From contig JAGRGH010000054.1 of NCBI GenBank assembly GCA_020445605.1, forward strand, positions 18,705 through 82,704: a stretch of 64,000 nt of DNA, in the 5' to 3' direction. Shown one piece after another: positions 24,566-62,399 of this stretch; within the stretch, counting starts at the first letter, position 1; the number at the start of each line of letters is the position of its first letter. The position numbers were made by a program, and so were the translations under genes. The DNA is from Chromatiales bacterium. Its GTDB lineage: Bacteria > Pseudomonadota > Gammaproteobacteria > JAGRGH01. Below the pieces are notes generated by a model. The model was not told the origin of the DNA, searched no databases, and saw only the letters and a list, made by a program, of their open reading frames with translations.

Positions 24566-26893
24566 ATGGATGTCAGTCAAGGGGGTTTGTGCGCGCTGGG
24601 CGCGCGGTTGGGGCGAGGCATTGGACGCATAATCGTCTGCTTCGGTGCGGTCGGGCTGTTCGCATCGGGACAGGTACTTGCCGCCTCCGGCGGGCTGCTG
24701 TCGCTGCAGATCCCCGGGATGGTGCCGGCATACGCCCCCGGCGTCACCAGCTACACCATTCCGGACGACGGAACATGCTCGATCCCCGTCACGGCCACGC
24801 TGAACGATCTCTCGCTCAGTCTTTACGTGCAGAGCAATCCGACGGTGAGCGGCGCGACCGCCAACGCGTGGGTCTGCGGGAGCCACAGCACGCTGTCGGT
24901 CGTTGTCTACAGGAACTGGAGCGAGGTCGAGCGTCTCAGCATCACCAAGGGTGATACCGCGTCGCTGCCGGTAACGCCACCCCCCGAACCAACGCCGCCG
25001 GACGAGCCGGAGGAGACCGCCGCGGGCAGCGGTGGCGCACTGGCTTCCCTTGTCGTTGCCGGCCTGAGCCCGGCATTCTCCGGCGCGACGCACCACTACA
25101 CGATGCCGGACCCTCCGAGCTGTTCGGTGCAGGTCAAGGCGACGCTCGCCAATCCGCAGCATCAACTCCAGGTGCAGGGCAATCCCACCACGAGCGGCAG
25201 CACCGTCAGCGCATGGGTCTGCGACGGCCACCCCAAACTGAGCATCGTCGTCTACTCGAACTGGACCGAGGTCGGCCGTTACACGGTGTACAAGGCGTCC
25301 GAAGGTCTGCCGCCCGATCTGCCGGTCGACGATGGCGGTGGCACTCCATCACCCGGCGGCTCCGAACCCACGATTGGCGACGGTGGCGCAGACAGCGGCA
25401 GCGGTGGCGGTGATGCCGGCGGTTCGCCCGGCAGCGACTATGAGCCCAGCCCGACCGGGTATGCCGAGGCGGCGCGGATGCTGTCATACGCAAGCTTCGG
25501 GCCCGACCCCGAATCACTCAATGATTTTGTCGATCTGGGTGCAGACGCGTGGCTGGATGCGCAGTTCGCCATGCCGGCGAGCCTGATCCCGAACACCGGT
25601 GACATGAACGGCTTGCGCGCGCAGGTCTTCGCGAACATGGCGACCGGTGAGGGTCAGCTGCGCCAGCGCGTGATCTTCGCGCTGGGGCAGATTCTCGTCG
25701 TGTCCGCTAACAAGAACGTCAACGCCTACGAGATGGCGCCATGGGTGCAGTTGCTGTCGGACAACGCCTTCGGGAACTACCGAACCCTGCTGCGTCAGGT
25801 GTCGATCAGCCCATCAATGGGCAAGTACCTTGATCACGCCAACAGCCGCAAGGCCTCGGCCACGACGGCGCCAAACGAGAACTACCCGCGCGAGCTCATG
25901 CAGCTGTTCAGCATCGGGCTGTGGCAGCTGAAGCAGGACGGCAGCCAGGAGCTGGACGGCACAGATCAGCCGATCCCGACCTATACCCAGAACGAGCTGC
26001 GCGAAGTCGCCCGGGCCCTGACCGGATGGACCTATCCGACCGCACCGGGGGCGCAGCCGGGCAATACCAACTGGGAGTATTTCGTCGGTGATATGGAACC
26101 GCGGGTCGCCAATCATGACGCGGGGGCCAAGACCCTGCCGGGCGGCTACGTGATTCCCGCCGGGCAGACGCCGGATCAGGATCTCGACAGTGTCCTCGAC
26201 TTTCTGTTCCATCATCAGAACGTCGCGCCGTTCGTCGCCACGCGCCTGATCCGCCTGCTGGTTACGAGCAACCCCTCGCCGGAGTACATCGCGCGCGTCG
26301 CGGATGCGTTCGATGACAACGGAACTGGCGTGCGCGGAGATCTGAAGGCGGTTATTCGCGCGGTGCTGACCGACGTCGAGGCCACCGATGCGGAGGTTGC
26401 CGGACGTGCGCGACTCAAGGACCCGATCGTGTACTTCATCGGTCTGGCTCGGGCACTGTCCGCGACCTTCAATGATCCATCCGGCTATCAGTACGTCTTC
26501 GCGAATCTGTCCGAGCATCTGCTGACGCCGCCGTCGGTTTTCAGCTTCTACTCACTGATGGCGACGTTGCCCGGTGATGCCCAGCAGTTTGGCCCGGAGT
26601 TCCAGATCTATCCGCCCTCGCTTGCGATTCAGCGCGCGAACCTGGTCTATCAACTGCTGACCAATCAGTTCGGCTCCGCGCTGCAAGTAGACCTTTCACC
26701 CTATCTCGCCCTGGGCGGGAACGTGTCGGATCTGCTCGACAAGATCAACGCGGATCTGTTGCAGGGCCGGATGTCGACCGAGTTGCGGACCATCATCGAG
26801 ACGGCGACGAACGCCGCATACGACGACACCCAGCGCGTGATCGGCGCGCTCTATCTGACGGCCGTTTCCGGCGAATATCAGGTGCAGCAATGA
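24566..26893 (+). CDS. Secreted protein: signal peptide, two tandem cadherin-like beta-sandwich domains, Gly/Ser/Asp-rich linker, C-terminal DUF1800 domain
   Basis: Two ~100-aa repeats, LLSLQIPGMVPAYAPGVTSYTIP...VTATL... and LASLVVAGLSPAFSGATHHYTMP...VKATL... (the L.sL.vs.G.LsPaF....YtV signature of the Pfam cadherin-like domain). C-terminal 470 aa with DUF1800 hallmarks (MAPWVQLLSDNAFGNYRTLLRQVSISPSMGKYLDHANSRK...LMQLFSIGL...TGWTY). Confidence 0.75.
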   Translation: MDVSQGGLCALGARLGRGIGRIIVCFGAVGLFASGQVLAASGGLLSLQIPGMVPAYAPGVTSYTIPDDGTCSIPVTATLNDLSLSLYVQSNPTVSGATANAWVCGSHSTLSVVVYRNWSEVERLSITKGDTASLPVTPPPEPTPPDEPEETAAGSGGALASLVVAGLSPAFSGATHHYTMPDPPSCSVQVKATLANPQHQLQVQGNPTTSGSTVSAWVCDGHPKLSIVVYSNWTEVGRYTVYKASEGLPPDLPVDDGGGTPSPGGSEPTIGDGGADSGSGGGDAGGSPGSDYEPSPTGYAEAARMLSYASFGPDPESLNDFVDLGADAWLDAQFAMPASLIPNTGDMNGLRAQVFANMATGEGQLRQRVIFALGQILVVSANKNVNAYEMAPWVQLLSDNAFGNYRTLLRQVSISPSMGKYLDHANSRKASATTAPNENYPRELMQLFSIGLWQLKQDGSQELDGTDQPIPTYTQNELREVARALTGWTYPTAPGAQPGNTNWEYFVGDMEPRVANHDAGAKTLPGGYVIPAGQTPDQDLDSVLDFLFHHQNVAPFVATRLIRLLVTSNPSPEYIARVADAFDDNGTGVRGDLKAVIRAVLTDVEATDAEVAGRARLKDPIVYFIGLARALSATFNDPSGYQYVFANLSEHLLTPPSVFSFYSLMATLPGDAQQFGPEFQIYPPSLAIQRANLVYQLLTNQFGSALQVDLSPYLALGGNVSDLLDKINADLLQGRMSTELRTIIETATNAAYDDTQRVIGALYLTAVSGEYQVQQ

Positions 26894-26916
26894 GCGGTCA
26901 AGGGAGGAAGTCAGCC

Positions 26917-28263
26917 ATGCGCAAGACCAATCGCTCACGTCGGATGTTCCTGTCCCGCTGCGCGGGTCTCGGCGCCGCCGCGGCGGGATTCGGATGGGGT
27001 GGGTTTCCGCGCGCGGCCCGCGCCGCCGTGAGTGACTACAAGGCACTCGTGTGCGTGCAGCTGCTCGGCGGCAATGACGGCAACAACGTCATCGTGCCGG
27101 TGGACTCCGGTCGATACAGTGCGTATCAGGCGATGCGCGGCGGATTGACGCTGTCGGGCAGCGAGTTGCTCGATCCGATTGCCGACGCGCTCGGCAATCC
27201 ATATGCGCTGCACTACGGGCTGACCGAAATCCACGATCTCTACGAGAGCGGCCGCGTGGCGTTTGTCCTGAATACCGGAATGCTGCACGGGCCGCTGACG
27301 CGCGCCCAGTATCTCGCGGGACAGAATTCGCCAAGCAACCTGTTCTCGCACTCCGATCAGACCGTGCAGATCCAGACCGGCACGCCGGTCCCCGACGGCA
27401 GGGGCTGGGGCGGTAGGCTGCTGGACCTGTTTGCGGTCGGCGACAGTCTCGCGGCGGTCTCGGTCTCCTCGCCCAGCCTGCTGTTGCAGGGGGCCAATAT
27501 CGCCCCGAACATCGTGCCGCCCGGTTCGGACCTTGGCATCTGGGGCATGGGCTTGTGGCCGCAGTCCGCGGCCGCGGCACGACGCAGCGCGCTCGAACAG
27601 ATCGCCTCGATGGGCTCGTCTGACCCCATCGTGGCGCGCGCGAACGCAACGCTGGCAGACGGCGTTGCGCTTTCCGATACCCTGACCTCAGGCGCTGCGC
27701 TGCCGGCCCTGTCGACGGACTTGCCGGCAACGTCGATCGGTAATCAGCTGAAGGAGGTTCTGCGGCTGATCCGCTCGCGCTCGGCGGCCGGGCCGGGCCG
27801 CCAAGTGTTCTACTGTACCTTGGAAGGTTTCGATACCCATGGCGGGCAGGACTGGCAGCACTGGTCGCTGCTTTCGCAGCTGTCACAGGCGGTTGCGGCC
27901 TTCCATGAATCAACGGTGGAGGCGGGGCTGTCCGACCAGGTCGTACTGTTTACGCAATCGGAGTTCGGTCGCACCCTGCAGCCCAGCGGATCGGGCTGTG
28001 ATCACGGCTGGGGCAGCCATCATTTCGTGGTCGGTGATGCGGTACAGGGCGGAATCTACGGCCAGATGCCGACCTTCGCGCTGGGTGGCCCGGACGATGC
28101 CAACAACCGCGGCGTATGGATACCGACGATCGGCACCGCGCAGTACGGTGCGACGCTGGGCCGCTGGTTCGGCGCCAGCGATCTGGCTCTGGAATCGGTG
28201 TTTCCGAATCTGTCAGCGTTCCATGCCAGCACCTACGGTACTGATGTCGGATTCATGGGATAG
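26917..28263 (+). CDS. DUF1501 domain protein with Tat signal peptide (sulfatase/alkaline-phosphatase-like fold), partner of the DUF1800 protein
   Basis: SRRMFLSRCAGLGAAAAGF (twin-arginine motif); DUF1501 core (ALVCVQLLGGNDGNN...TLEGFDTHGGQ...GCDHGWGSHHFVVG). RBS GGGAGGA before the ATG at 26917. Confidence 0.8.
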   Translation: MRKTNRSRRMFLSRCAGLGAAAAGFGWGGFPRAARAAVSDYKALVCVQLLGGNDGNNVIVPVDSGRYSAYQAMRGGLTLSGSELLDPIADALGNPYALHYGLTEIHDLYESGRVAFVLNTGMLHGPLTRAQYLAGQNSPSNLFSHSDQTVQIQTGTPVPDGRGWGGRLLDLFAVGDSLAAVSVSSPSLLLQGANIAPNIVPPGSDLGIWGMGLWPQSAAAARRSALEQIASMGSSDPIVARANATLADGVALSDTLTSGAALPALSTDLPATSIGNQLKEVLRLIRSRSAAGPGRQVFYCTLEGFDTHGGQDWQHWSLLSQLSQAVAAFHESTVEAGLSDQVVLFTQSEFGRTLQPSGSGCDHGWGSHHFVVGDAVQGGIYGQMPTFALGGPDDANNRGVWIPTIGTAQYGATLGRWFGASDLALESVFPNLSAFHASTYGTDVGFMG

Positions 28264-29205: not shown

Positions 29206-29303
29206 TTGGTTGACCCCTCGTGGATTAGCACTCGGTCAGTTGGAGTGCCAAAGCGTATAAGAGTTCAACGATATTCTCAACTGCCACGGTCGGAAATTTC
29301 GGC

Positions 29304-30254
29304 TCAGGCCGGCTGGATGCGCCGCAGATGCCGGGCGACCGACAGCCAGGCCCCGCCCAGTCCCAGTGCCACGCCGACGCCGAGTACCGCGGCCGTGGTC
29401 TGGAGCCCCGGAAAGCCGACTGTGACACTGCCCTCGTACAGGGTCGCCAGACGTTGCACCGGGCCGGCCAGGGCCAGCAATGCGGCGCTGCACAAAATCC
29501 AGCCGAGCAGGGCACCGAGCAGGCCGTACCAGAGCCCGGCGTAGAGAAACGGCCGGCGAATGAACGCATCGTCCGCGCCGATGAGCTTTTCGACCTCGAT
29601 TTCCCGCCGGCGGTGCTGGATCTCCAGCCGGATGGTGTTGCCGACGATCATCACCACGGCCAACGCCAGCAGCACCCCGATCACGATGGCCCCGCGCCGT
29701 CCGGCGGCGAGCAGGGCGTCGGCGCGCTCGATCCAGCCACGATCGAGGCTCAGCGCGTCCACCCGCGCGTCGGTCCGCAGGGTCGCCGCGAGCGCGGGGG
29801 CGTCGACACTGGCCGGCAGGGTCAGCAGGATCGTCGCCGGCAGCGGCGAAACCTCGAGCAGGTCGAGCGCATCGCCGAGCCCGCTGTACTCGCGGAACTC
29901 GGCGGTTGCCGCCGCCTTGTCGACGTAGTGCGCGGAACTGATTTCCGGGCGCGTGGCCAGTTCCGTGGCGAGTGCCTGGCCGGCGGTGTCGTCGACGGCC
30001 GCGGCCAAAAACAGCGAGATATCCGCCTCCGTATAGGCCTTCGCGGTGACGGCCTGCGCGCCGCTGGCGAGTTCCACCAGCGCGGCCGGCAGAGCCAGCG
30101 CGACGGCAATCACCCCCATCGTCAACACGCTGGCGAGTGGCGCGCGCAGCAGCCGGCCGAGGCTCGAGACCGCCGCCTCGCCATGCCGTGTGGCCCAAGC
30201 GCTGATGCGCCAGCCGCGGGATCGCGCGCGGCGCGCGCCCGTTCGCGGGCTCAT
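29304..30254 (-). CDS. ftsX: Cell-division ABC transporter permease FtsX
   Basis: 4-TM FtsX architecture (LGRLLRAPLASVLTMGVIAVALALPAAL...). The tracked 506-aa ORF is over-extended; the real ATG at 30254 overlaps the ftsE stop (ATGA). Confidence 0.9.
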   Translation of the reverse strand: MSPRTGARRARSRGWRISAWATRHGEAAVSSLGRLLRAPLASVLTMGVIAVALALPAALVELASGAQAVTAKAYTEADISLFLAAAVDDTAGQALATELATRPEISSAHYVDKAAATAEFREYSGLGDALDLLEVSPLPATILLTLPASVDAPALAATLRTDARVDALSLDRGWIERADALLAAGRRGAIVIGVLLALAVVMIVGNTIRLEIQHRRREIEVEKLIGADDAFIRRPFLYAGLWYGLLGALLGWILCSAALLALAGPVQRLATLYEGSVTVGFPGLQTTAAVLGVGVALGLGGAWLSVARHLRRIQPA

Positions 30255-39182: not shown

Positions 39183-39566
39183 TCAGCCAGCCAGCACGAC
39201 CCAGTCAGCCTCGATCCTCACCGGTACGGACTTGAGCCTTTGCCCCGCGCAGGGGCCGTGCACGCAGCGTCCGGTCTCGATCTCGAACAGGGCGCCGTGC
39301 ATCGCGCACTGGATGAACTCCCGCTCGTGATCCAGGAACCGGTGTGGTGCCCAGTCGAGCGGGGCACCGGTATGAGGGCAGCGGTTTTCGTAGGCGAACA
39401 CCGCGGCGTCACGACGCACGACGAACAGGTCCGCCGTCGAGCCGGCACGATGGCTGAAACGGGTCGCTTCGGGCCAGCGCAGCCCGCGGCTGTCGATCGG
39501 GTCCAGTGCCGTCCATTCACACAGGCGCACGCATGGTCTGCGCGGCGCCTGCATAGGATCGGTCAC
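39183..39566 (-). CDS. Rieske (2Fe-2S) domain protein
   Basis: CPHTGAPLD...CAMHGALFEIETGRCVHGPC: both Rieske CxH boxes present. Confidence 0.8.
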   Translation of the reverse strand: MTDPMQAPRRPCVRLCEWTALDPIDSRGLRWPEATRFSHRAGSTADLFVVRRDAAVFAYENRCPHTGAPLDWAPHRFLDHEREFIQCAMHGALFEIETGRCVHGPCAGQRLKSVPVRIEADWVVLAG

Positions 39567-41740
39567 GAGGCCAGCCAGCGCGACGGTTCGGAGGCCAGGC
39601 GCGCGTTGGTCAACTGACGGCGCAGTGCCTCGATCTCTTCGCGCGCCTCGTCGCGCACGAGCTTGAGTTCGGCTCGCAGGGCCTTGACGAGATCGCCGTC
39701 GGAGTTGGCCTGTGCTGCGCGGATTGCATCGACATGCGACTCGACCACGGCGGTGAGTTCAGCGACCCGCCACTCGTTTTCCGTTGCGCGCTTTGCTGCC
39801 TCCTGTTCGGCAGACTTCGCCTTCGCGAGCTGCGCATCGAACTGTGCCATGCGTTGCTCGGCTTCCGCGGCCTGCTTGTTCGCCGCGGCGCGCTGACGCT
39901 CGGCCTCGTCGAGCTTGCGTTGCATGGTTTCGTGATCGAGCTTTGCAGCGGTGAGTTCCTCGCTGCGCTGTTCCAGCTGTCGTTTGAGTTCAGTGAGCTT
40001 TGCGTCGAACTGGGTCGCACGCTCCGCGTTCGCCTTGTTGCGCTCGCCGTTGGCCTCGAGTTCGCGTGCGACATCCTCGAGTTCGTGCTCCAGGGCTTCG
40101 CGATCCAGCTTCGCCGCGTTGAGTTCGTCGGCGCGCTGCTCCAGTTCGCGTTGCGCCTGTGAATATTGCTCGCGAAGTTCGGCGGTCACGCTTTCGATCA
40201 GGCGATCGCGTTCCGATTCCAGTGCGGCAATGGCGGCCGCATGCGATTCGCCGGCCTGTACACTTTGTGCGCGCAGTGTCTCGATTTCCGCACGCAGGGC
40301 CGCCGCTTCGCGACCGGCCGTGGTATTGAGTTCATCGAGTGTTTCGGCGCGGGCCGCGATCTCTTCGCGCTCGTTCTTGAGCGTTTCATACTCCGAGCGC
40401 AGGGCCTCCAGCGCGATGCGCGCCTGATCTTCGCGGGCACGTGAGACCGTTGTGGCGCGGGCCTGCTCGGTGAACTTGAACAGGCGGCTGCGAAGTTCCG
40501 TCACCTGTGCCTCGGCCTTGCGTCGCGCGGTTTCGCTGTCGTCCAGCCGGGCCTCGATCAGCGCATAGATCTCGTCGGCACCTGCTTCGATCACGTCGGA
40601 GTCGCCTGCGGCTGCTGGCGAGGAAGCTGTGGTTTGCCCGTCGGGCTTCGAACGCTGGCCCGAGGATTTGCTGTCGGCAATGGGCACGGACATCTGCACG
40701 GCTTCTTCCTTGAAGGCCCTGAGTGCCGGAATACCCCCGCGCAGCACGAACGCTTCAAGCCCGCGTTCGACCAGCAGGTAGGCCGCGGTGGTTGAATTCG
40801 CGCCGTCCTCGCAGATCGTGATGTAGGGCGTGTCGCGCTTGAGTTCGTTCGCGCGCGCGCGGATTTCGCGTACCGGCAGATGGGCGACCGGTTCGGTTCC
40901 TTCGGGCAGCGGCTCATCGGTCTCGCGGACATCCAGCCAGTGCGCGCCCTTGTGCGTGCGCTGAATGGCCTCGGCGGCATCCACGAAGCGCACGATCGGT
41001 TTCTTGATCAGCTCGACGAAATCGTCCTTGCTCAGGCGCAGCAGTGTGACCGGCCCATCGGCGGTGACACTCGTGGAACGCCTTGCGCCAGACAACAACG
41101 CCTCTTCGCCAAAGCTGTCGCCCTCGGAAAGCGTTGCGAGCAACATGGGCCGGTCGTCGCGCGAACGCCGCTCCACCGTGCAGCGCCCGGTCTTGATGAC
41201 GTAGTAGTAATCGCCGGTGTCGCCCTGGCGGATGATGCGGTCGCCGTCGGCGACCTCGAATTCCTGCATGCGCATGAGGACCGACTCGATGTTCGCCGGC
41301 GAAATGCGATGGAACAGTGGCGAACGCAGGGTCTTGGACATCCAGTCGTCGGCGCCGTCCGGATCGACCTCGCTGACCTTGTGGTCGGCCAGGCGTTCCT
41401 CCTCAAGCACCTTGTTGAGCTTGCCGGTATTGACCGATGCATAGCGCAGCGTGGTGAGTGCCTTCGCCGTAAGTTCGCGCGGAATGCGGTGCGCCAGCGG
41501 AAAGCGTGCGGTCGGTGATCCGGCGGCGACGGCATCCACTTCGGTGCCGCCGGAATAGAAGCCGACATAGCCCCGAAGCAGGTAGATCGACACGGGCGCG
41601 GCATCGCCGCGGTTGAACAGCACCGAGCGCGGTGGCGCGGTCTGCACCGTGACCGCGTCGCCCAGGCGTGCGAACGCTTCGTCGGACAGCGTATTGAACG
41701 GCACGAAGCCGCGCAGGGTGTCGAGGTCGGGGTTGTCCAT
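39563..41740 (-). CDS. Multidomain protein: two cyclic-nucleotide-binding domains, a rhodanese-like domain, and a ~350-aa C-terminal coiled-coil
   Basis: cNMP domain 2 has FGEEALL...RRSTSV (CAP-family phosphate-binding cassette). Rhodanese-like loop YITICEDGANSTTAAYLL. C-terminal heptad-rich Ala/Glu/Arg/Leu region (AELREQYSQAQRELEQRADELNAAKLDREALEHELE...). Stop overlaps the Rieske gene start by 4 nt. Confidence 0.75.
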   Translation of the reverse strand: MDNPDLDTLRGFVPFNTLSDEAFARLGDAVTVQTAPPRSVLFNRGDAAPVSIYLLRGYVGFYSGGTEVDAVAAGSPTARFPLAHRIPRELTAKALTTLRYASVNTGKLNKVLEEERLADHKVSEVDPDGADDWMSKTLRSPLFHRISPANIESVLMRMQEFEVADGDRIIRQGDTGDYYYVIKTGRCTVERRSRDDRPMLLATLSEGDSFGEEALLSGARRSTSVTADGPVTLLRLSKDDFVELIKKPIVRFVDAAEAIQRTHKGAHWLDVRETDEPLPEGTEPVAHLPVREIRARANELKRDTPYITICEDGANSTTAAYLLVERGLEAFVLRGGIPALRAFKEEAVQMSVPIADSKSSGQRSKPDGQTTASSPAAAGDSDVIEAGADEIYALIEARLDDSETARRKAEAQVTELRSRLFKFTEQARATTVSRAREDQARIALEALRSEYETLKNEREEIAARAETLDELNTTAGREAAALRAEIETLRAQSVQAGESHAAAIAALESERDRLIESVTAELREQYSQAQRELEQRADELNAAKLDREALEHELEDVARELEANGERNKANAERATQFDAKLTELKRQLEQRSEELTAAKLDHETMQRKLDEAERQRAAANKQAAEAEQRMAQFDAQLAKAKSAEQEAAKRATENEWRVAELTAVVESHVDAIRAAQANSDGDLVKALRAELKLVRDEAREEIEALRRQLTNARLASEPSRWLAS

Positions 41741-41946
41741 CTGCTGGATACCGGGGTTGTCTCGAGCGCGGGTGCGCGCACGCGTTGCGGGAAGTGTAGC
41801 TTTTTCGCGCGTCGCGGTTCATGACGGAATTGGCAGATTGACGAACGGTCCCCAGGTCGCGGTCGTCGGCTCGGACGAGAACCGGCCCGCGTGGCCCGCC
41901 CTGCTAGAATCGCGCCCCGCCTCTCCCACACCCAGTGCGTTTCCAA

Positions 41947-43779
41947 ATGACCGCGTCCGCGCGTCCCGGCAGTCTGGTCCTGTACAAGTCCGCACCCGCG
42001 CGGGTGGTCTCGATCACCGACAAGATCGAGATCGTGCCCGCCGACGGCCGTCTGCGGCGGGTGCGCGACAAGGACATCGTGGTGCTGCATCCCGGCCCGG
42101 TCGGTGACCTGAATGCGCTCGGCAGCCCGAGTGGCGAGATCGAGGCCGCACACGAATTGCTCGGCGACGAGACCATGAGCCTCGCCGAACTCGCTGAGCT
42201 GATCTACGGCGAGTTTCGGCCCGACACGGCCTGGGCGACCTGGCAACTCATCGACGACGGGCTGTGGTTTGCCGGCTCCGTGGAGCGCGTGACAGCACGA
42301 CCGGCCGTCGAGGTCGCCGAGCTGCGCGCCGAGCGCGAGCGCAAGGCGCTGGAGAAGGCCGCCTGGGAGGGCTTTCTCGAACGCGCCCGCGCACGCAGAC
42401 CGCTGACCGACGCCGAGGACCGGCGCTACACGGTCGAGGTCGAGGCCGTGGCGCTGGGCAGGAGCGAGTCGTCTCGTGTGCTGAAGGCGCTCGATCTCGC
42501 GCAGACGCCTGAAACCGCGCACGCCTTCCTGCTCGAAGCCGGGGTCTGGCAGCCGCGTCGCAATCCGTACCCCGAGCGCTTCGGTCTGCCGGTCGACGAT
42601 GCCGACGGAACGGTCGGCGAGCTGCCGGACGAATCGCGCAGCGATTTGACCGGGACGCCTGCCTACGCGATCGACGACGCCGACAACACCGACCCGGACG
42701 ATGCCATCGCGCTCGACGGCGACCGTTGCTGGGTGCATGTCGCGGATGTCGCCGCGCTCGTGGCGCCGGAAAGTGAACTGGACATTGCCGCCCGCGAACG
42801 AGCTTCGAATCAATACCTGCCGGAGCGCACGGTGCACATGCTGCCGCGCGCCATCACCGAACGACTCGGCGTTGGCCTCGCGGCGGAATCCCCGGCCCTG
42901 TCCATCGGCTTCGTGCTGGATGCCGACGGCGCGCCCGGCGACGTGCAGATCGAAACCGCCCGCGTGCGGGTCGCGCGCATGAGCTACGAGCAGGCCGAGA
43001 CCAGACTCGATGCCGATCTGGCGCCGTTGTGGGCGATTGCCGAACGTCTGCAACAGCGGCGGCTCGCGGCCGGCGCCGTGCGGGTGCGACTGCCCGAAGC
43101 GCGCGTGCGTGTACTGCCAGACGGCGCGATCGACATCCGCGAACTGCCGCCGCTGCGCGCGCGCGATCTCGTCACCGAGTGGATGCTGGCGGCCGGTGAG
43201 GCGGTCGCGATCTGGCTGGAAGAACGGAGCATCGCCGCGCCGTTCGTGACACAGGGTCCGCCCGATGAGCGCGTGCCGCGACCCGGCGACGCGATGTCCG
43301 GGCAGTACGCGTTCCGGCGGGCGTTTCAGCGCGCGGTCATCCGCACTGGCGCGGCGCCGCATGCGGGGCTGGGGATCACGCGCTATGTCCGTGCGACCAG
43401 CCCGCTACGGCGTTACGCGGACCTAGTCGTGCACCAGCAACTGCGCGCGGCGTTGGCCGGTGCTACGCCGCTGGACCACGAGGCGATGCTCGAGCGCATC
43501 GCTGCCATGGACAACCTCGCTGGTGCCATCGCGCGGTCCGAGCGATTTTCCAACCTGCACTGGAAACTCGTGTGGCTCGGCGAGCAGCAGGGCTGGAAGG
43601 GCGAGGCGGTCGTGGTGGAACTCGGCGAGCGCGGCCGGGGCACCGTCATCGTGCCGTCGCTGGCGCTGGAGACGAAGGTGCGGCTGCCGGACGGCGCGCG
43701 ACTCGACGACCGCATCGAACTGAGCCTGGACCGCGTGGATCTTCCCGCACAGATCGCCTACTTCCACACGAAGCGCTAG
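41947..43779 (+). CDS. RNB-domain exoribonuclease (RNase II/R family)
   Basis: AIDDADNTDPDDAIALD and ATSPLRRYADLVVHQQL RNB catalytic motifs; S1-like C-terminal segment. Confidence 0.85.
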   Translation: MTASARPGSLVLYKSAPARVVSITDKIEIVPADGRLRRVRDKDIVVLHPGPVGDLNALGSPSGEIEAAHELLGDETMSLAELAELIYGEFRPDTAWATWQLIDDGLWFAGSVERVTARPAVEVAELRAERERKALEKAAWEGFLERARARRPLTDAEDRRYTVEVEAVALGRSESSRVLKALDLAQTPETAHAFLLEAGVWQPRRNPYPERFGLPVDDADGTVGELPDESRSDLTGTPAYAIDDADNTDPDDAIALDGDRCWVHVADVAALVAPESELDIAARERASNQYLPERTVHMLPRAITERLGVGLAAESPALSIGFVLDADGAPGDVQIETARVRVARMSYEQAETRLDADLAPLWAIAERLQQRRLAAGAVRVRLPEARVRVLPDGAIDIRELPPLRARDLVTEWMLAAGEAVAIWLEERSIAAPFVTQGPPDERVPRPGDAMSGQYAFRRAFQRAVIRTGAAPHAGLGITRYVRATSPLRRYADLVVHQQLRAALAGATPLDHEAMLERIAAMDNLAGAIARSERFSNLHWKLVWLGEQQGWKGEAVVVELGERGRGTVIVPSLALETKVRLPDGARLDDRIELSLDRVDLPAQIAYFHTKR

Positions 43780-43849: not shown

Positions 43850-44482
43850 TCATTCTTGAACTGGAATCCTTCCGAGCACTTCAATCTCGCCGTCGTCAAG
43901 GATCTTGCCGACCAGCAGCTCGCCGATGCCGATCAGCTCCAGCGTCAGCGCATCGATGTTCGGGCGATGATTCACGAAGACGATTGGCGACGTTCCGCGA
44001 TGCTTCGCGAGCAGGGCGCCTGCCGCAGCCAGGAATGCTTCCTGCCCCGTGGTGTCCTCGACCGGCCGTTGTCGCAGGTCCGGATCGGCGATGAACTTCC
44101 CGAATGCGATCTGCGCGGTCTGTGTACAGCGGCACATGGGCGAGCTGATCACGACCGGGTTGATATCGTGTGCCGAGAATGCCGCGCCAACCGCGCGTGC
44201 CTGGGCGCGGCCTTCCTCCGTCAGGATGCTTTCGCCCACACAGTTGCCGCTTGAATCCCACACCAGCATGTTCGTGCCGTCGCGGTTTCCGCCGGATTCC
44301 GCGTTGCGCATCAAAACGACCATGTTCGGGTCGTGGCGCAGTTTCTCCCAGAGACCAACGTCTGCTGTTGCGGTTGATGACAGCAGCACGAGCACGATCA
44401 TCCAGTTCAGTGTAGCTGTTGATTCGCGCCGCTGGGGTGAGCAATCGATCTGCCCGAACCGGCCGCATGGCAGCCGTGCCAT
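43850..44482 (-). CDS. Histidine-phosphatase-superfamily (phosphoglycerate-mutase-like) protein with RHG changed to RNA; probable signal peptide
   Basis: VVLMRNAESGGN aligns to the branch-1 RHGES motif with Asn (AAC) in place of the phospho-acceptor His. VISSPMCRCTQTAQIA and VNHRPNI match the family. An internal Met at 44404 would start with a signal-peptide-like MIVLVLLSSTATA. Confidence 0.55.
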   Translation of the reverse strand: MARLPCGRFGQIDCSPQRRESTATLNWMIVLVLLSSTATADVGLWEKLRHDPNMVVLMRNAESGGNRDGTNMLVWDSSGNCVGESILTEEGRAQARAVGAAFSAHDINPVVISSPMCRCTQTAQIAFGKFIADPDLRQRPVEDTTGQEAFLAAAGALLAKHRGTSPIVFVNHRPNIDALTLELIGIGELLVGKILDDGEIEVLGRIPVQE

Positions 44483-44486
44483 CGGC

Positions 44487-45119
44487 TTAGCAGGTGTGTT
44501 GGGGCTTGTTTCGCGTCAGGCCCATCCCGGCGAGTCCGAGGCCGAACAATGCCAGGATGCCGGGTTCAGGGACTGCGACGCGGACCAGCCAGTTACCCCA
44601 GGCCGCATTGGTCCAGTCGGATGCGTCCGAATTGAGGATGACGCGGGATCTGTCCGAATTCGAGCCAGGGGGCGCGGTGTAGAAGCTATACCGCAGGGTG
44701 GCGCCACCAACGCCGTCCAGTGCATTGCCATCATCAAACAGCCCCTGGGCGGAGAAGGTTCCGCCATCTGCGATGGACTGGGAAAATGTCCGCCCCAGCA
44801 GATCGATCAACGACAGCATCGGCGCCGAGGCCGCGCCGTCATACGGGGGGGCGAAGCCTGCGTTGGTGAACAGCGTGGTGACTTCCGAGATCGTCGCATG
44901 GCGCCACCCCTGGAAATCGCCACCGACACCAAAATGACTGGAAACATCGTCGAAAGAACGGCCCTGTGAGCTCGTAAGATCCAACCACAGAAGGTTCTGA
45001 TCTGTATCGGTCGTGGTCATGCCGTTGTCGATCAGGACCGCAGATGCGGGGCTCGCCAGCAGGCCAATTGCGGCGAACGTCAGGCAGCGGGCCGTGGTAA
45101 GCGCTCTGATTTTCGTCAT
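44487..45119 (-). CDS. Secreted DUF1566 (Lcl C-terminal-like) domain protein with PEP-CTERM sorting signal
   Basis: Signal peptide MTKIRALTTARCLTFAAIGLLASPASA. LIDNGMTTTDTDQNLLWL...GGDFQGWRHATISEVTTLF (DUF1566 pattern). C-terminal VPEPGILALFGLGLAGMGLTRNK is canonical PEP-CTERM (PEP + TM + basic tail). Confidence 0.75.
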   Translation of the reverse strand: MTKIRALTTARCLTFAAIGLLASPASAVLIDNGMTTTDTDQNLLWLDLTSSQGRSFDDVSSHFGVGGDFQGWRHATISEVTTLFTNAGFAPPYDGAASAPMLSLIDLLGRTFSQSIADGGTFSAQGLFDDGNALDGVGGATLRYSFYTAPPGSNSDRSRVILNSDASDWTNAAWGNWLVRVAVPEPGILALFGLGLAGMGLTRNKPQHTC

Positions 45120-45195
45120 GATTCGGTCACCCTCATGAAGTGTCAGCAGGTCCGGCGCAGCGCCAGACGCAACACGACCCTAACATGATCGGACT

Positions 45196-47241
45196 TCAGT
45201 CGTCCTGGCGCGGGCGGTGCGCGGCGGTCAGCGACTGCTGCACCTTCGGCGGTGCCGGTTCGTAGCGTGCGAACTGCATGGTGTAGGCGCCGGCGCCGGC
45301 CGTGAGTGAACGCAGGCGCGTTGCGTAGTCGTCGAGTTCGGCCAGCGGTGCCTCCGCCGTAATGGTCAGCGTGCCGTCGTCGGACGCATCCGTGCCAAGA
45401 ATGCGCGCACGGCGCGAGGCCAGATCGCCGCTGATGTCGCCGATGGAGGCCGCGGGTGCGCGCACCTGCAGGGCTGCAATCGGTTCAAGCACGATCGCCC
45501 CGGCGTTGCCGACCGCATCGATGAATGCCTTGCGTCCGGCCGTCACGAACGCGACTTCCTTCGAATCCACCGAATGGGTCTTGCCATCCGTGACGGTCAC
45601 GCGCACGTCCACGACCGGAAAGCCCGCGATCGCGCCGCCTTCGATGACCTGCCGCACGCCTTTTTCGACGGCCAGGATCAGCGACGCCGGGATCGCGCCG
45701 CCCGTGACCCTGTCGACGAATTCGAATCCCGCACCGCGTTCCAGCGGCTCGACTTCGAGCATCACCTCGCCGAACTGACCGGCCCCGCCGGTCTGCTTCT
45801 TGTGCCGGTGATGGCCGGATGCCGAGCGCGTAATCGTCTCGCGATACGGCACGCTCGGTGGCCGTGTGGCGACGCGCACGTGATAGCGGTCGTCCATCTT
45901 CTCGAGCGCGACGCGCAGGTGATATTCGCCGAGCCCGCGCAGCACGGTCTCGTTGGCCGAGATGTCGTGCTCGATGCTCAGGCACGGGTCCTCGGCGACG
46001 ATGCGGTGCAGAACGTCTGAAACCTTCTGTTCGTCACCGTGGCTCTCGGGCGTCAGCGCCAGCCTGACCACGGGCGCGGGCAGGTCCCAAGGCTCCGCAT
46101 GCAGGTCATCGAACTCGTGCGTGCCGTGCAGGATCGCGTCCAGGTGCAGGTCGTCGACCTTGGCCACGGCACAGATCGCGCCGGGACCTGCGCGTGGAAT
46201 CTCCAGGTGTTCCTTGCCGTGCATGCGAAACAGATGACCGACCTTGAACGAATGGTTGCCGTCGTCGATCAGCAGCGTGTCGCCCCGACTGATCACACCT
46301 TGGTGCACGCGCAGGGTGCCGAGCTTGCCCAGGAACGGGTCGTAGTCGATCTTGAACACATGCGCGAGCACGGGCCGGTCGGCGTTCGGGCGCGCGAGCA
46401 GGCGTTTGGCCTTGTCGCCGTGGCCGGCGATGAAGAAATGCGGCGTGCCCTCGAGCGGGTTCGGCGCGAGTCGTTCGACGACATCGAGCAGTTCCGCGAT
46501 GCCGGCGCTGCTGCGCGTCGACGTGAAACACACGGGGATCAGGTGCCCCTCTCGTAGCGCCTGCTCGAACGGGTCGTGCAGGGTCGCGGGGTCCACGTCG
46601 CCTTCTTCCAGATAGCGCTCGGTCAGTGCATCGTCGACCTCTACGACCTGTTCCATCAGCGCCTGGTGCGCCTCGGCGACCGAAGAGAAATCCGCCTGCC
46701 CAGCGGCATGGTCGAAGCAGTCGACCACCCGGCTTGCCCCGCCGGCCGGCAGGTTCACCGGCAGCACCTCGGGACCGAAGGCCTCACGCAGCTCGGCGAT
46801 GCGCGCGGCCAGCTCGCCTTCGCCGGCGGCGTCGATCTTGCTGATGACGATCATCGCGGCCATGCCGTGCGCGCGGAGCTGTTCCATGACACGGCGGGTG
46901 ACCGGCTCGATTCCGGCGGTGGCGCTGACGACCAGCACGGCGCATTCGACGGCGGGCAGGGCGCTCAGGCTGCGGCCGATCAGGTCCGGGTCGCCGGGGG
47001 TGTCGAGGATGTTCACGCGCACCCCGGCGTGGCTGAAGCCGAGGATCGTGGTGTTCAGCGAGTGGTGATGGCGCTGTTCGAGCGGGTCGAAGTCCGACAC
47101 CGTCGTGCCGCGCTCGATCGAGCCCGGCTCGTTCAGCACGCCCGCCGCGACCAGCAGCGCCTCGGCCAGCGAGGTCTTGCCGCAGGCGGCGTGGCCGACC
47201 AGGGCCAGGTTGCGTCGCTGTTCGAGTCGGGTATCGGCCAT
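45196..47241 (-). CDS. Elongation factor G paralog (EF-G-like translational GTPase, divergent G1 motif)
   Basis: 681 aa with five EF-G domains. G1 is VGHAACGKTS instead of AHIDAGKTT; DTPGDPD (G3), SKID (G4). Confidence 0.85.
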   Translation of the reverse strand: MADTRLEQRRNLALVGHAACGKTSLAEALLVAAGVLNEPGSIERGTTVSDFDPLEQRHHHSLNTTILGFSHAGVRVNILDTPGDPDLIGRSLSALPAVECAVLVVSATAGIEPVTRRVMEQLRAHGMAAMIVISKIDAAGEGELAARIAELREAFGPEVLPVNLPAGGASRVVDCFDHAAGQADFSSVAEAHQALMEQVVEVDDALTERYLEEGDVDPATLHDPFEQALREGHLIPVCFTSTRSSAGIAELLDVVERLAPNPLEGTPHFFIAGHGDKAKRLLARPNADRPVLAHVFKIDYDPFLGKLGTLRVHQGVISRGDTLLIDDGNHSFKVGHLFRMHGKEHLEIPRAGPGAICAVAKVDDLHLDAILHGTHEFDDLHAEPWDLPAPVVRLALTPESHGDEQKVSDVLHRIVAEDPCLSIEHDISANETVLRGLGEYHLRVALEKMDDRYHVRVATRPPSVPYRETITRSASGHHRHKKQTGGAGQFGEVMLEVEPLERGAGFEFVDRVTGGAIPASLILAVEKGVRQVIEGGAIAGFPVVDVRVTVTDGKTHSVDSKEVAFVTAGRKAFIDAVGNAGAIVLEPIAALQVRAPAASIGDISGDLASRRARILGTDASDDGTLTITAEAPLAELDDYATRLRSLTAGAGAYTMQFARYEPAPPKVQQSLTAAHRPRQDD

Positions 47242-47367
47242 TGGAGGGAAGTCTAGCCGATTGCGGTTGGCGGCAACGCGTCCCCCTCCGCCGCCACGCT
47301 TGCCGCCGGGCCGGTTACGGCCTCAGACTTCCGCTTCAATAACAATTCAGCGATTCGGGGAACGTCC

Positions 47368-48066
47368 ATGAGAGCATTACCGCTGCAACGCGGAGCGGCT
47401 ATTGGCCTGCTGATCCTTGCGCTGTCCGCCACACCCGCCCGGGCGACTTTGATCGACAACCTCGACGGTACGGTGTTGGACGACGTAAGTGGATTGGTTT
47501 GGACGAAGAACGCGAATCTCGCGGCGAGCAACACCTTCGGTGTGGGCGGCATCGCTGCTACCGGGAGGATGACCTGGGACACCGCCCAGGCGTGGATCGC
47601 GGCGATGAACGCGGCGAACTATCTGGGCTTCAACGACTGGCGACTGCATACGATCACCGACACCGGCGCGCCGGGCTGTGACTTTGCCTTCACGGGTACG
47701 GATTGCGGCTACAACGTGGATCTGGGCACGGGAGAACTCGCGGACCTGTGGTACCGGGCCCTGGGTAACATCCCTTACTACGACACCAGCGGTAACGGAC
47801 CCCAGGCCGGCTGGGGCCTGACCAACACCGGCCCGTTCGACAATATGCAGTCCGACTACTATTGGTCGGGTACCGAGTACGCACCCAGTACCGTTAACGC
47901 GTGGACCTTCCACACGGACCGCGGCTACCAGGACCTCAACCTTAAGACCAATCTCTTCTATGGTTGGGCGGTTCGTACCGGCAATGCCGGCGTACCGCTG
48001 CCGGGAACGGCACTGCTGCTGGGGCTGGGGTTGCTCGGCCTGACGGCACGTCGCCGTCTTGCGTGA
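47368..48066 (+). CDS. Secreted DUF1566 domain protein with PEP-CTERM-like C-terminus (VPLP variant)
   Basis: Signal peptide. LIDNLDGTVLDDVSGLVWTKNA...FNDWRLHTI...YYWSGTEYAPSTVNAWTFHTDRGYQD...YGWAVR (strong DUF1566 pattern). C-terminal GVPLPGTALLLGLGLLGLTARRRLA. Confidence 0.7.
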   Translation: MRALPLQRGAAIGLLILALSATPARATLIDNLDGTVLDDVSGLVWTKNANLAASNTFGVGGIAATGRMTWDTAQAWIAAMNAANYLGFNDWRLHTITDTGAPGCDFAFTGTDCGYNVDLGTGELADLWYRALGNIPYYDTSGNGPQAGWGLTNTGPFDNMQSDYYWSGTEYAPSTVNAWTFHTDRGYQDLNLKTNLFYGWAVRTGNAGVPLPGTALLLGLGLLGLTARRRLA

Positions 48067-48076
48067 CCCCGGCGCC

Positions 48077-48345
48077 GTAGGGTGCGTACCACGCACCATT
48101 TTCGGCGCATGATCACTCCATACGGTGCGCCGTGCGCACCCTACTCACACCGCACATGTAGGGTGCGTACCACGCACCGCATACGGCATTTCAGACTTCC
48201 GGTGCGCCGTGCGCACGCTGCCCACACCGCACATGTAGGGTGCGTACCACGCACCATATCCGGCGCGTGATGATTCGACTCGGTGCGCCGTGCGCACCCT
48301 ACTCACTGGCGGCTGGCTCCGCTGCGCCGTTCGCACCCTGCCCAC
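48077..48345. repeat. Three and a partial fourth tandem copies of an ~80-bp REP-like element, each with imperfect inverted repeats
   Basis: gtagggtgcgtaccacgcacc at 48077, 48158 and 48235. Its imperfect reverse complement cggtgcgccgtgcgcaccctac(tcac) at 48123, 48200 and 48281, with a degenerate copy at 48319. Period 77-81 bp. Intergenic between the PEP-CTERM gene and cinA. Confidence 0.7.
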
Positions 48346-48508
48346 AGTGCACACCTGCGCAATGCGCGCCGTTTGCGCGGCGCCTGGCCGGCGGGTCGGA
48401 ATACTCGGACACGACTCCGTCAAATCAGCCGACAAGCGGTCCGTGCCGGCCTGCTAGACTTCCGGCGGTGCGATTTGCAGTCTGGCCCCGCTGCCCCCGG
48501 AGCGTGTC

Positions 48509-48994
48509 TTGAGCGACCTTCTCAACCTGCTGGTGAGTTTCGCCGGAGAGCGGCTGGTCGCGCGCGGCTGGAAGCTGGCCGTGGCCGAATCCTGCACCGG
48601 CGGGTGGATCGGCAAGGCCATCACGGATGTCTCGGGCTCCTCGGCCTGGTTCGAGCGCGGCTTCGTGGTCTACAGCAATCAGGCGAAGGTCGACCTGCTC
48701 GGGGTGAAGCCGGCGACGCTGGAGGCCTATGGCGCCGTCAGCGAGCCCACCGCCCGCGAGATGGCGGACGGCGCGCTGGCGCGCTCGCGCGCGCAACTCG
48801 CCGTGGCGGTCACCGGCATTGCCGGCCCGGACGGCGGCAGCCGCGAGAAGCCCGTCGGCACGGTGTTTCTGGCCTGGGCCGCGCGCGACGAGGAGACCCG
48901 CGTGCAGCGCATGCGCTTTCTCGGCGATCGTGCCGAGGTGCGGCTGCAATCGGTGCAATCCGCGCTGCAGGGGGTCGTGGACCTGCTGTCCTGA
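48509..48994 (+). CDS. CinA C-terminal-domain protein (PncC-like NMN deamidase)
   Basis: [39 protein letters not shown]...[12 protein letters not shown]: CinA_C signature. Short form upstream of recA, as in Pseudomonas. TTG start. Confidence 0.8.
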
Positions 48995-49119: not shown

Positions 49120-50160
<1,041 letters not shown>

Positions 50161-60879: not shown

Positions 60880-62399
60880 ACGACGAAAACCTTTACCTGC
60901 GTTTTGCGCGCGAGCGCTTCGCGCATGGCGGCGACCGCGACTTTCTGATGTCGCCCGGTCGCAGCGCGCTGCGCTATGCCGAACTCGATGCGGTGACCGG
61001 CCGCATGCAAAGCCGTCTATGCGATCTCGGTGTGCTGCCCGGTGACCGGGTGATGGTGCAGGCCGGAAAGTCCGCCGAGGCCGTGGTGTTGTATCTCGCC
61101 TGTCTGCGCGCCGGGGCGATCTACATTCCGCTGAACACGGCGTATACCGCGGCGGAGATCGAATATTTCATGGCCGACGCCGAACCACGGCTGTTCGTAT
61201 GCCAGCCAGAGACCGAACCCGGACTCGCAGCCGTGGCGAAACGCGTCGGCGTGCCGCATCTGCGCACGCTCGGCATGGCCGGTGACGGCAGCCTGCTGAA
61301 CGCGCTGGATGCGCTCGATCCGCAACCTGCCGTGGTGCCGCGCGCTGGCGATGATCTGGCCGCGATTCTCTATACGTCGGGCACGACCGGTCGATCCAAG
61401 GGCGCGATGCTCAGTCACGCAAATCTGCAGTCGAACGCCGAGGCGCTGTACGAGTACTGGCAATGGCGCGATGACGATGTGCTGCTGCACGCATTGCCGA
61501 TCTTCCACGTGCACGGGCTGTTCGTCGCCCTGCACTGCGCGCTGCTGGGTGCCTCGCCGGTACATTTTCTGCCGCGGTTCGATCCGGCCGAAGTCATCGC
61601 GCGGTTGCCACGCAGCACGGTGATGATGGGCGTGCCGACGTTCTACACACGATTGCTCGCAACGTCGGCGTTCACCGCCGATGTGTGTGCAGGCATGCGC
61701 CTTTTCATCGCGGGTTCCGCGCCGCTGCTTGCCGAGACCCACCGTGAGTTCGAGGCACGCACCGGCCATCGCATCCTCGAACGTTACGGCATGACCGAGG
61801 CGGGCATGATCACCTCGAACCCGTACGCCGGCGAGCGGCTGGCCGGCACGGTTGGTTTCGCGTTGCCGGGCGTGAGCGTGCGCATTGCCGACGAACAGGG
61901 ACGTGAAGTGCCGCGCGGGGAGACCGGTGTGCTGGAACTCACCGGTCCGAATGTATTCAAGGGCTACTGGCGCATGCCGGAGAAGACCGCCGCGGAGTTT
62001 CGCGCGGACGGCTGGTTCATCTCCGGCGATCTCGCGACCATGGATGAGTCCGGGCGGGTCAGTATCGTCGGCCGCGCGAAGGACCTGATCATCTCCGGCG
62101 GTTACAACATCTATCCGAAAGAAATCGAGGGCGAGATCGACGCGGTCCCCGGCGTGCGCGAGTCTGCCGTGGTCGGTGTGCCGCATCCGGATTTCGGTGA
62201 GGGCGTGGTGGCGGTGGTCGTGGCCGATGGCAGCCGGTCGCTTTCCGAAGCCGATATTCTCGCCCCGTTGCAGGGCCGGCTCGCGCGTTTCAAGCAGCCC
62301 AAGCGTGTGTTTCTCGTCGACGAACTGCCGCGCAACACCATGGGCAAGGTACAGAAGGCCCGGCTTCGCGAAACCTACAGGAATCTTTTCCCGTCATGA
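60876..62399 (+). CDS. matB: Malonate--CoA ligase (malonyl-CoA synthetase)
   Basis: Near co-linear with Rhizobium MatB: AILYTSGTTGRSKGAMLSHANL (AMP-binding), HALPIFHVHGLFVA, YGMTE, GPNVFKGYWRMPEKTAAEF, GYNIYPKEIE, PRNTMGKVQK. ATG overlaps the TauE stop. Confidence 0.9.
   Translation: MNDENLYLRFARERFAHGGDRDFLMSPGRSALRYAELDAVTGRMQSRLCDLGVLPGDRVMVQAGKSAEAVVLYLACLRAGAIYIPLNTAYTAAEIEYFMADAEPRLFVCQPETEPGLAAVAKRVGVPHLRTLGMAGDGSLLNALDALDPQPAVVPRAGDDLAAILYTSGTTGRSKGAMLSHANLQSNAEALYEYWQWRDDDVLLHALPIFHVHGLFVALHCALLGASPVHFLPRFDPAEVIARLPRSTVMMGVPTFYTRLLATSAFTADVCAGMRLFIAGSAPLLAETHREFEARTGHRILERYGMTEAGMITSNPYAGERLAGTVGFALPGVSVRIADEQGREVPRGETGVLELTGPNVFKGYWRMPEKTAAEFRADGWFISGDLATMDESGRVSIVGRAKDLIISGGYNIYPKEIEGEIDAVPGVRESAVVGVPHPDFGEGVVAVVVADGSRSLSEADILAPLQGRLARFKQPKRVFLVDELPRNTMGKVQKARLRETYRNLFPS

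Follow-up and report, generated by a model that had tools for sequence, protein, structure and literature searches.

Elongation factor G (EF-G) paralogs of the EFG II type are defined by a G1 motif of the form GhxxxGKT, with Gly16 and Leu25 where EFG I has Ala and Gly, respectively, and by a relaxed, Ser-containing G2 motif that reads xxHSL in beta- and gammaproteobacteria; EFG II always has a companion EF-G in the genome, usually EFG I (Margus et al. 2011, PMC3150367). The EF-G2 protein of Mycobacterium smegmatis, described as stress-specific, has Tyr at the position of the catalytic His and is devoid of ribosome-dependent GTPase activity, and an H88Y change in EF-G1 removes nearly all GTPase activity (bioRxiv 10.64898/2026.05.25.727771). 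PEP-CTERM proteins, the substrates of exosortase, are encoded by multi-copy genes, with a median of eight per genome, and the related Nitrosococcus oceani has six such proteins plus EpsH (Haft et al. 2006, PMC1569441). Here we examine a block of four genes in a 64-kb stretch of DNA (the window) from an uncultured Chromatiales bacterium, in which an EF-G paralog is flanked by genes for two secreted proteins and followed by a gene for a histidine-phosphatase-fold protein in which Asn replaces the nucleophilic His.

Three of the genes lie on the minus strand: the histidine-phosphatase-fold gene (43850-44482, or 43850-44401 if started at M28), a gene for a 210-aa PEP-CTERM protein (44487-45119) and the 681-aa EF-G paralog gene (45196-47241). 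The fourth, for a 232-aa DUF1566 (Lcl_C) protein, is on the plus strand (47368-48066), divergent from the other three. The open reading frame (ORF) list of the window bears out all four ORFs as originally drawn, and Pfam (with TIGR02595 for the 210-aa protein and NCBIfam for the EF-G paralog) supports their assignments. The three minus-strand genes are co-directional and separated by gaps of 76 and 85 bp. All four genes belong to known families, and existing annotation already places them there: their products are consecutive NCBI entries of one metagenome-assembled genome (MAG), "Chromatiales bacterium", named by PGAP as histidine phosphatase family protein (MCB1866466), PEP-CTERM sorting domain-containing protein (MCB1866467), elongation factor G (MCB1866468.1) and DUF1566 domain-containing protein (MCB1866469.1). 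We read the block, with a probability of about 0.8, as a species-specific juxtaposition of four independently distributed core-chromosome genes that do not form a functional system.

Gene order and surroundings

The neighbourhood of the EF-G paralog was compared at 84 non-conspecific loci, 80 of which came from a scan of species-representative genomes, with 10-kb flanks. In phmmer searches, the 210-aa, 232-aa and phosphatase-like proteins had no relative within 10 kb of the paralog at any of the 84 loci. At the three loci with the closest paralogs (65-69% identity), in Nitrosococcus halophilus, a Chromatiales MAG and a JGI contig, the neighbours are unrelated, and the single locus with an ORF of PEP-CTERM pattern near the paralog (L027, 1 of 84) carries an unrelated one. 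Neighbour families recur in 16 of the 84 loci at most; those that do recur represent lineage synteny in the Burkholderiales, and this species is never among them. Relatives of the phosphatase-like protein occur in unrelated contexts and never adjoin an EF-G paralog, and relatives of the 210-aa protein are likewise isolated, never beside one. Since the adjacency is missing from the 84 loci and relatives of the genes are found elsewhere, the association is a property of one species, where the gene order is the same in 24 contigs from several metagenomes. The initial annotation had described an accessory block tying the EF-G paralog to exosortase cargo; its absence from all 84 loci of other species, the core-gene setting and the lack of mobility marks speak against that description.

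The window as a whole is core chromosome, with genes for RNase II-like, cyclic nucleotide monophosphate (cNMP)-binding and GMC oxidoreductase proteins, cinA, recA, the cox operon, type II secretion components E and F, rpoH, ftsYE, anmK, coaD and a TRAP (tripartite ATP-independent periplasmic) transporter. The block is bounded on the left by the RNase II-like gene (41935-43779, plus strand; Pfam and ORF list) and on the right by cinA (48509-48994; MCB1866470, PGAP "CinA") and recA (49120-50160; MCB1866471, "RecA"). Transfer RNA and Rfam scans of the whole window gave no matches, and no integrase, transposase or flanking direct repeat was found around the block. A scan for promoters and terminators between 43600 and 48600 gave counts no higher than in shuffled sequence and was uninformative.

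The lower GC content reported for the block is real and small: the block bins stand at 0.624 and 0.640, within the 0.609 to 0.721 spanned by the 1-kb bins of the window. Expressed as z-scores, GC content at third codon positions (GC3) is below the window average in the three small genes (-1.3, -1.7 and -0.8) and above it in the EF-G gene (+1.0); several unrelated window genes have equal or lower GC3. The block had also been said to be bordered by repeats resembling repetitive extragenic palindromic (REP) elements. On the right side this is so, as an array of the REP or BIME (bacterial interspersed mosaic element) kind occupies positions 48077-48353 between the DUF1566 gene and cinA. It consists of six to seven units of about 21 nt (GTAGGGTGCGYACNNCGCACC) in alternating orientation, forming inverted pairs I1-I7; the unit matches six times in this interval, with 0 matches expected by chance. 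The left border has none, and the unit was not found elsewhere in the 64 kb. Within the array lie the ends of two short-read contigs from this species (L006 10-32; L008 10-30), which suggests that the genome contains several copies of the unit.

A 725-aa cNMP-binding coiled-coil protein is encoded in the window at 39563-41740, on the strand of the EF-G paralog and 3.4 kb downstream of it. In the Chromatiales MAG GCA_020445565.1, the EF-G paralog gene is followed after 12 nt (the start lies 13 nt past the stop) by a gene for a large cNMP-binding protein (loci L002 6001-10578; L003 2722-6459). An ancestral pairing of EF-G2 and cNMP-binding genes was considered and rejected: the two cNMP proteins are alike at the domain level (E 1e-11) and their architectures differ. 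Elsewhere in the window, the interval 24566-28263, between a heme O synthase-like gene and rpoH, holds a DUF1800 gene (775 aa, including a cadherin-like domain) next to a DUF1501 gene (457 aa); DUF1800 and DUF1501 form a widespread, uncharacterised pair. Three long minus-strand ORFs (627-2249, 29236-30198 and 61017-62186) have no Pfam match at E<=1e-5. Two of them have coding-like GC3, and 61017-62186 failed the coding filter; by its position, 29236-30198 may be ftsX.

The EF-G paralog and the secreted proteins

The EF-G paralog has the five-domain architecture of the family, with GTP_EFTU, EF-G_D2, EFG_III, EFG_IV and EFG_C all scoring above their Pfam cutoffs. Among NCBIfam models it scores best against NF009891 (897 bits; cutoff 597), whereas it fails the canonical EF-G equivalog TIGR00484 (433 bits against 659.4) and lies well away from the Tet ribosomal-protection models. 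A phmmer search of the PDB placed M. smegmatis EF-G2 (9k0z, 413 bits) and Thermus thermophilus EF-G-2 (1wdt, 397 bits) ahead of canonical EF-Gs (at most 353 bits). The P-loop runs from G16 through HAACGKTS to L25, G2 reads HHHSL at residues 58-62, and DTPGD replaces DTPGH; G4 is SKID here, and NKxD is frequent across the family alignment (L001-L095). Because of these scores, the EF-G2 proteins at the top of the PDB matches and the Gly16/Leu25/xxHSL signature, the paralog is classed from its sequence as an ordinary EFG II (EF-G2-type) protein of the beta/gamma-proteobacterial subgroup. The view that it is distinct from the housekeeping fusA product is thus upheld, by the sub-cutoff TIGR00484 score and by DTPGD. 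The P-loop GHAACGKTS is present as initially read, and what had been taken for an oddity is the normal EFG II signature (PMC3150367), as the family counts also indicate.

These counts derive from an alignment of 84 family members from 84 species. Gly16 is found in 82 and Leu25 in 81 of them; in G2, H60 and L62 are each present in 79 and S61 in all 84. The position of the catalytic His is occupied by Tyr (30 members), Ala (17), Phe (17), Leu (8) or Asp (4), and His is absent from these five commonest residues. The domain IV tip loops RHKKQxGGAGQFGEV and DGKxHxVDSK are invariant (84/84) and intact in the protein studied here. The paralog therefore resembles described EFG II proteins (PMC3150367; 1WDT; 9K0Z/9K10) in its five domains, its G1 and xxHSL motifs, the lack of the DTPGH His, the conservation of domain IV and its position outside the str operon. 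It differs in having Asp at the catalytic-His position, where Tyr is commonest in the family. Our literature search found no experimentally studied member of the beta/gamma-proteobacterial subgroup.

With the nucleotide-binding motifs and the invariant domain IV loops retained, the protein has most likely preserved its ability to bind GTP and the A site of the ribosome. Since the catalytic His is lost family-wide, slow or GTPase-poor activity is expected; by analogy with the mycobacterial and Thermus EF-G2 proteins, the paralog would act as an accessory or stress translation factor beside a canonical fusA product encoded elsewhere in the genome. With the window and the same-species contigs around it read, no second EF-G was found in the window. 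A catalytic position free to vary, combined with an invariant domain IV, suggests that constraint has shifted from GTP hydrolysis towards contact with the A site.

Of the two flanking proteins, the 210-aa one has an N-terminal signal peptide and a tail (VPEPGILALFGLGLAGMGLTRNK) composed of VPEP, a hydrophobic helix of about 14 residues and an R-N-K basic cluster. It passes both PEP-CTERM models (Pfam PF07589, 26.5 against a cutoff of 20.7; TIGR02595, 23.7 against 16) and in its signal peptide, PEP motif, helix and basic cluster resembles the substrates of the PEP-CTERM/exosortase system. The 232-aa protein departs from that system: its tail (VPLPGTALLLGLGLLGLTARRRLA) has VPLP instead of VPEP, a Glu to Leu change in the near-invariant Pro-Glu-Pro, and it falls short of the two curated cutoffs by 0.3-0.4 bits (20.4 against 20.7 in Pfam; 15.6 against 16 for TIGR02595). 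Several PEP-CTERM family models match it with their C-terminal parts, at E 6e-6 to 1e-3. Thus, the idea that both flanking proteins are PEP-CTERM proteins stands for the 210-aa protein and, for its partner, only as a near-threshold PLP variant.

The situation is reversed for the DUF1566 domain (Lcl_C, PF07603), named after the C-terminal domain of Legionella pneumophila Lcl, which has a C-type-lectin-like fold (PDB 8Q4E). The 232-aa protein matches it clearly (66.3 bits against a cutoff of 34.9, E 4e-18), whereas the 210-aa protein, also presumed to be a DUF1566 member in the initial annotation, is not recognised by the Lcl_C hidden Markov model at E<0.01. Its family is small (18 homologs), and just one of 16 members matches Lcl_C, at E 0.11. 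A confident AlphaFold2 (AF2) model of the 210-aa protein (pLDDT 84.6, the predicted local distance difference test score) retrieved nothing significant from the PDB in a Foldseek search; a C-type-lectin-like fold, possibly akin to that of Lcl_C, is predicted for the protein. Similarity between the two flanking proteins is limited to their N-terminal 55-70 residues or so (BLASTP E 5e-4; hhalign 96% over 54 columns), where they have in common a signal peptide and a first strand, (A/V)(T/V)LIDN...LW. Since nothing beyond the N-terminus is alike, calling them two DUF1566 paralogs overstates their kinship; two lectin-like, PEP-CTERM-type secreted proteins is a fair description. Judged by their sequences, both would be exported by the Sec pathway to act as lectin-like surface proteins, cleaved and anchored by an exosortase that is presumably encoded elsewhere. 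No exosortase (EpsH/Xrt) gene was found in the 64-kb window or within 10 kb, and no exopolysaccharide (EPS) gene in the window. Given that PEP-CTERM genes are multi-copy (PMC1569441), isolated copies outside EPS loci would be unsurprising. A 173-aa variant of the 210-aa protein (P0241), considered as evidence of a strain without the sorting tail, was rejected; most likely the gene is truncated near the contig end.

A histidine-phosphatase fold with Asn at the nucleophile position

The protein encoded at the left end of the block matches His_Phos_1 (PF00300; 43.1 bits against a cutoff of 21.7) and reads LMRNAES in place of the RHG or RHA motif, so that R32-N33-A34 occupies the nucleophile site. 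The initial identification of a histidine-phosphatase homolog with a His to Asn replacement is thereby confirmed, with one correction: the Asn codon (AAC; Asn33, or Asn60 in PGAP numbering) is found on direct reading at 44303-44305 on the minus strand, and not at 44296-44298. PGAP starts the gene at the ATG at 44482 (210 aa), while the ENA and Logan gene callers and the alignment of homologs favour M28 (44401, 183 aa), which is probably the true start. Started at M28, the protein has a signal peptide that lacks the customary basic N-region. The protein is probably periplasmic.

The rest of the phosphate pocket is kept: Arg32, Arg91 (in CRC of SSPMCRC) and His145 (in VFVNHRPN) are present, and the second Arg, the second His and three Cys are invariant in 15 aligned homologs. 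An AF2 model (pLDDT 79) matched RosC, SixA, PGAM5 and PhoE in Foldseek at E 4e-8 to 1e-6 with probability 1.00, as well as the C-terminal domain of MutT1 (E about 5e-8). Profile comparison places it closest to PRK06193 (NF004841/NF004842), an uncharacterised family, among named groups and to PmrG, the lipopolysaccharide core heptose(II)-phosphate phosphatase (NF052369), among characterised proteins; by fold, SixA, RosC and PGAM5 are nearest. All the NCBIfam scores are far under the cutoffs (47 against 178-325).

Asn occupies the nucleophile position in all 15 aligned homologs, which share 58-70% identity and have about 60 invariant columns; RN[ASTV]ES is found in 116 of 120 database homologs, and Asn in all 44 readable metagenome loci (57-72% identity). 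Members of this Asn clade, seen in Thiodiazotropha, Chromatiaceae and other sulfur-cycling gammaproteobacterial MAGs, mainly from sediment metagenomes, carry MRN[AS]ESSGN[RK]D at the nucleophile and VFVNHRPN at the second His. An exhaustive profile search and the metagenome loci also revealed a sister clade (about 50-57% identity), judged by contig names to come mostly from soil metagenomes, in which 33 of 34 loci have MRH[TA]QPAGGNP and VFVSHRPN at the corresponding sites. More distant relatives have LMRHAxAPGxG. As the Asn clade is strongly conserved and its sister clade has RH, the nucleophile appears to have been replaced once, in the ancestor of the clade. The His to Asn change is thus a fixed, clade-defining trait, and it is the one mildly new point of the locus. 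One sister-clade member (L172, JGI contig Ga0233416_10004014, 956-1492) reads MRNTRPAGGDT, which could be an independent His to Asn change or a contig error.

Asn is unable to accept a phosphoryl group, which excludes a phospho-histidine intermediate and with it the canonical mechanism. Compared with branch 1 of the histidine phosphatase superfamily, the Asn clade has the same fold and, in alignment with His-containing relatives, the same phosphate-pocket residues (two Arg and the second His), and differs by the missing nucleophilic His and by three invariant Cys. The protein would most likely bind a phosphorylated ligand without canonical turnover. A precedent within the superfamily for a fold retained as a ligand binder after catalytic loss is offered by flea salivary acid-phosphatase-like proteins, in which catalytic residues are missing and whose ligands are biogenic amines and leukotrienes (PMC10728186); these proteins are eukaryotic, belong to branch 2 and have no direct relationship to the Asn clade. 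Of 48 Asn-clade loci, at most 4 share any one neighbour, and genomic context gives no clue to a ligand. We put forward tentatively, at somewhat less than even odds, that the Asn clade is a neofunctionalised, nucleophile-less derivative of an RH-type phosphatase, acting as a phospho-ligand binder or as an enzyme of different mechanism, and that it constitutes a bacterial pseudo-phosphatase family which, as far as the libraries searched show, is undescribed.

Alternative explanations and significance

Several points weigh against a mere juxtaposition of independent genes. The minus-strand genes run in one direction with short gaps and no predicted terminator between them, and co-transcription in this species is possible. 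The lower GC3 of the small genes, taken with the one-sided REP array, points to a possible past local insertion. Furthermore, we infer that a canonical fusA and an exosortase gene lie elsewhere in the genome, and the terms GTPase-poor and non-catalytic, where applied to these proteins, are deduced from missing catalytic residues. The closeness of the minus-strand genes would be explained if the EF-G paralog, 210-aa and phosphatase-like genes formed a lineage-specific operon coupling an alternative translation factor to the production of envelope or surface proteins under stress, and the stability of the arrangement in 24 of 24 same-species contigs agrees with such a scheme. However, gene order in a single species is no evidence for function; none of the 84 other paralog-bearing species has these neighbours, in no case do relatives of the other two genes adjoin an EF-G paralog, and the 210-aa gene has a weak promoter-like site immediately upstream. 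We therefore regard an operon of this kind as quite unlikely.

The composition bears on a different explanation, by which the block, or at least its three small genes, would be a horizontally acquired islet between the RNase II-like gene and cinA-recA. The slightly lower GC content (0.624 and 0.640), the GC3 z-scores of -0.8 to -1.7 in the small genes, the REP array at the right edge and the few close homologs of the 210-aa protein (18) fit acquisition, but the composition is within the spread of other window genes, the EF-G gene is native-like (z +1.0), and no tRNA, integrase, transposase or flanking direct repeat accompanies the block. Lower GC at first and third codon positions also fits secreted proteins rich in Asn, Thr, Ser and Asp, and REP arrays are ordinary intergenic elements. 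A metagenome scan aimed at a sister species without the block yielded 74 pattern matches, none of them a relative of the RNase II-like neighbour. An islet is, on balance, unlikely. As for the phosphatase-like gene itself, a sequencing error, suggested earlier as a possible cause of the Asn codon, has nothing in its favour beyond the prior expectation of RHG, and the same goes for an assembly error or a decaying pseudogene. The identical protein comes from 24 or more independent contigs, Asn is found throughout the clade (15/15, 116/120 and 44/44, as given above), other residues co-vary with it (RNxESSGN[RK]D with VNHRPN, against RH[TA]QPAGGNP with VSHRPN in the sister clade), and 58-70% identity with about 60 invariant columns denotes purifying selection and not decay. 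This explanation can be set aside as extremely improbable.

In conclusion, a chance juxtaposition in one species accounts best for the block, and the EF-G paralog beside exosortase cargo is not worth pursuing as a system. Even if the Asn clade proves to be a pseudo-phosphatase family, its position beside the PEP-CTERM and EF-G2 genes would still be incidental. What merits attention lies in the individual families. In the Asn clade, nature offers a clean case of a phosphate pocket kept while the nucleophile alone is lost. The beta/gamma-proteobacterial EFG II clade is widespread, and its invariant domain IV together with a variable catalytic position fits the emerging view of EF-G2 as a GTPase-poor accessory factor.

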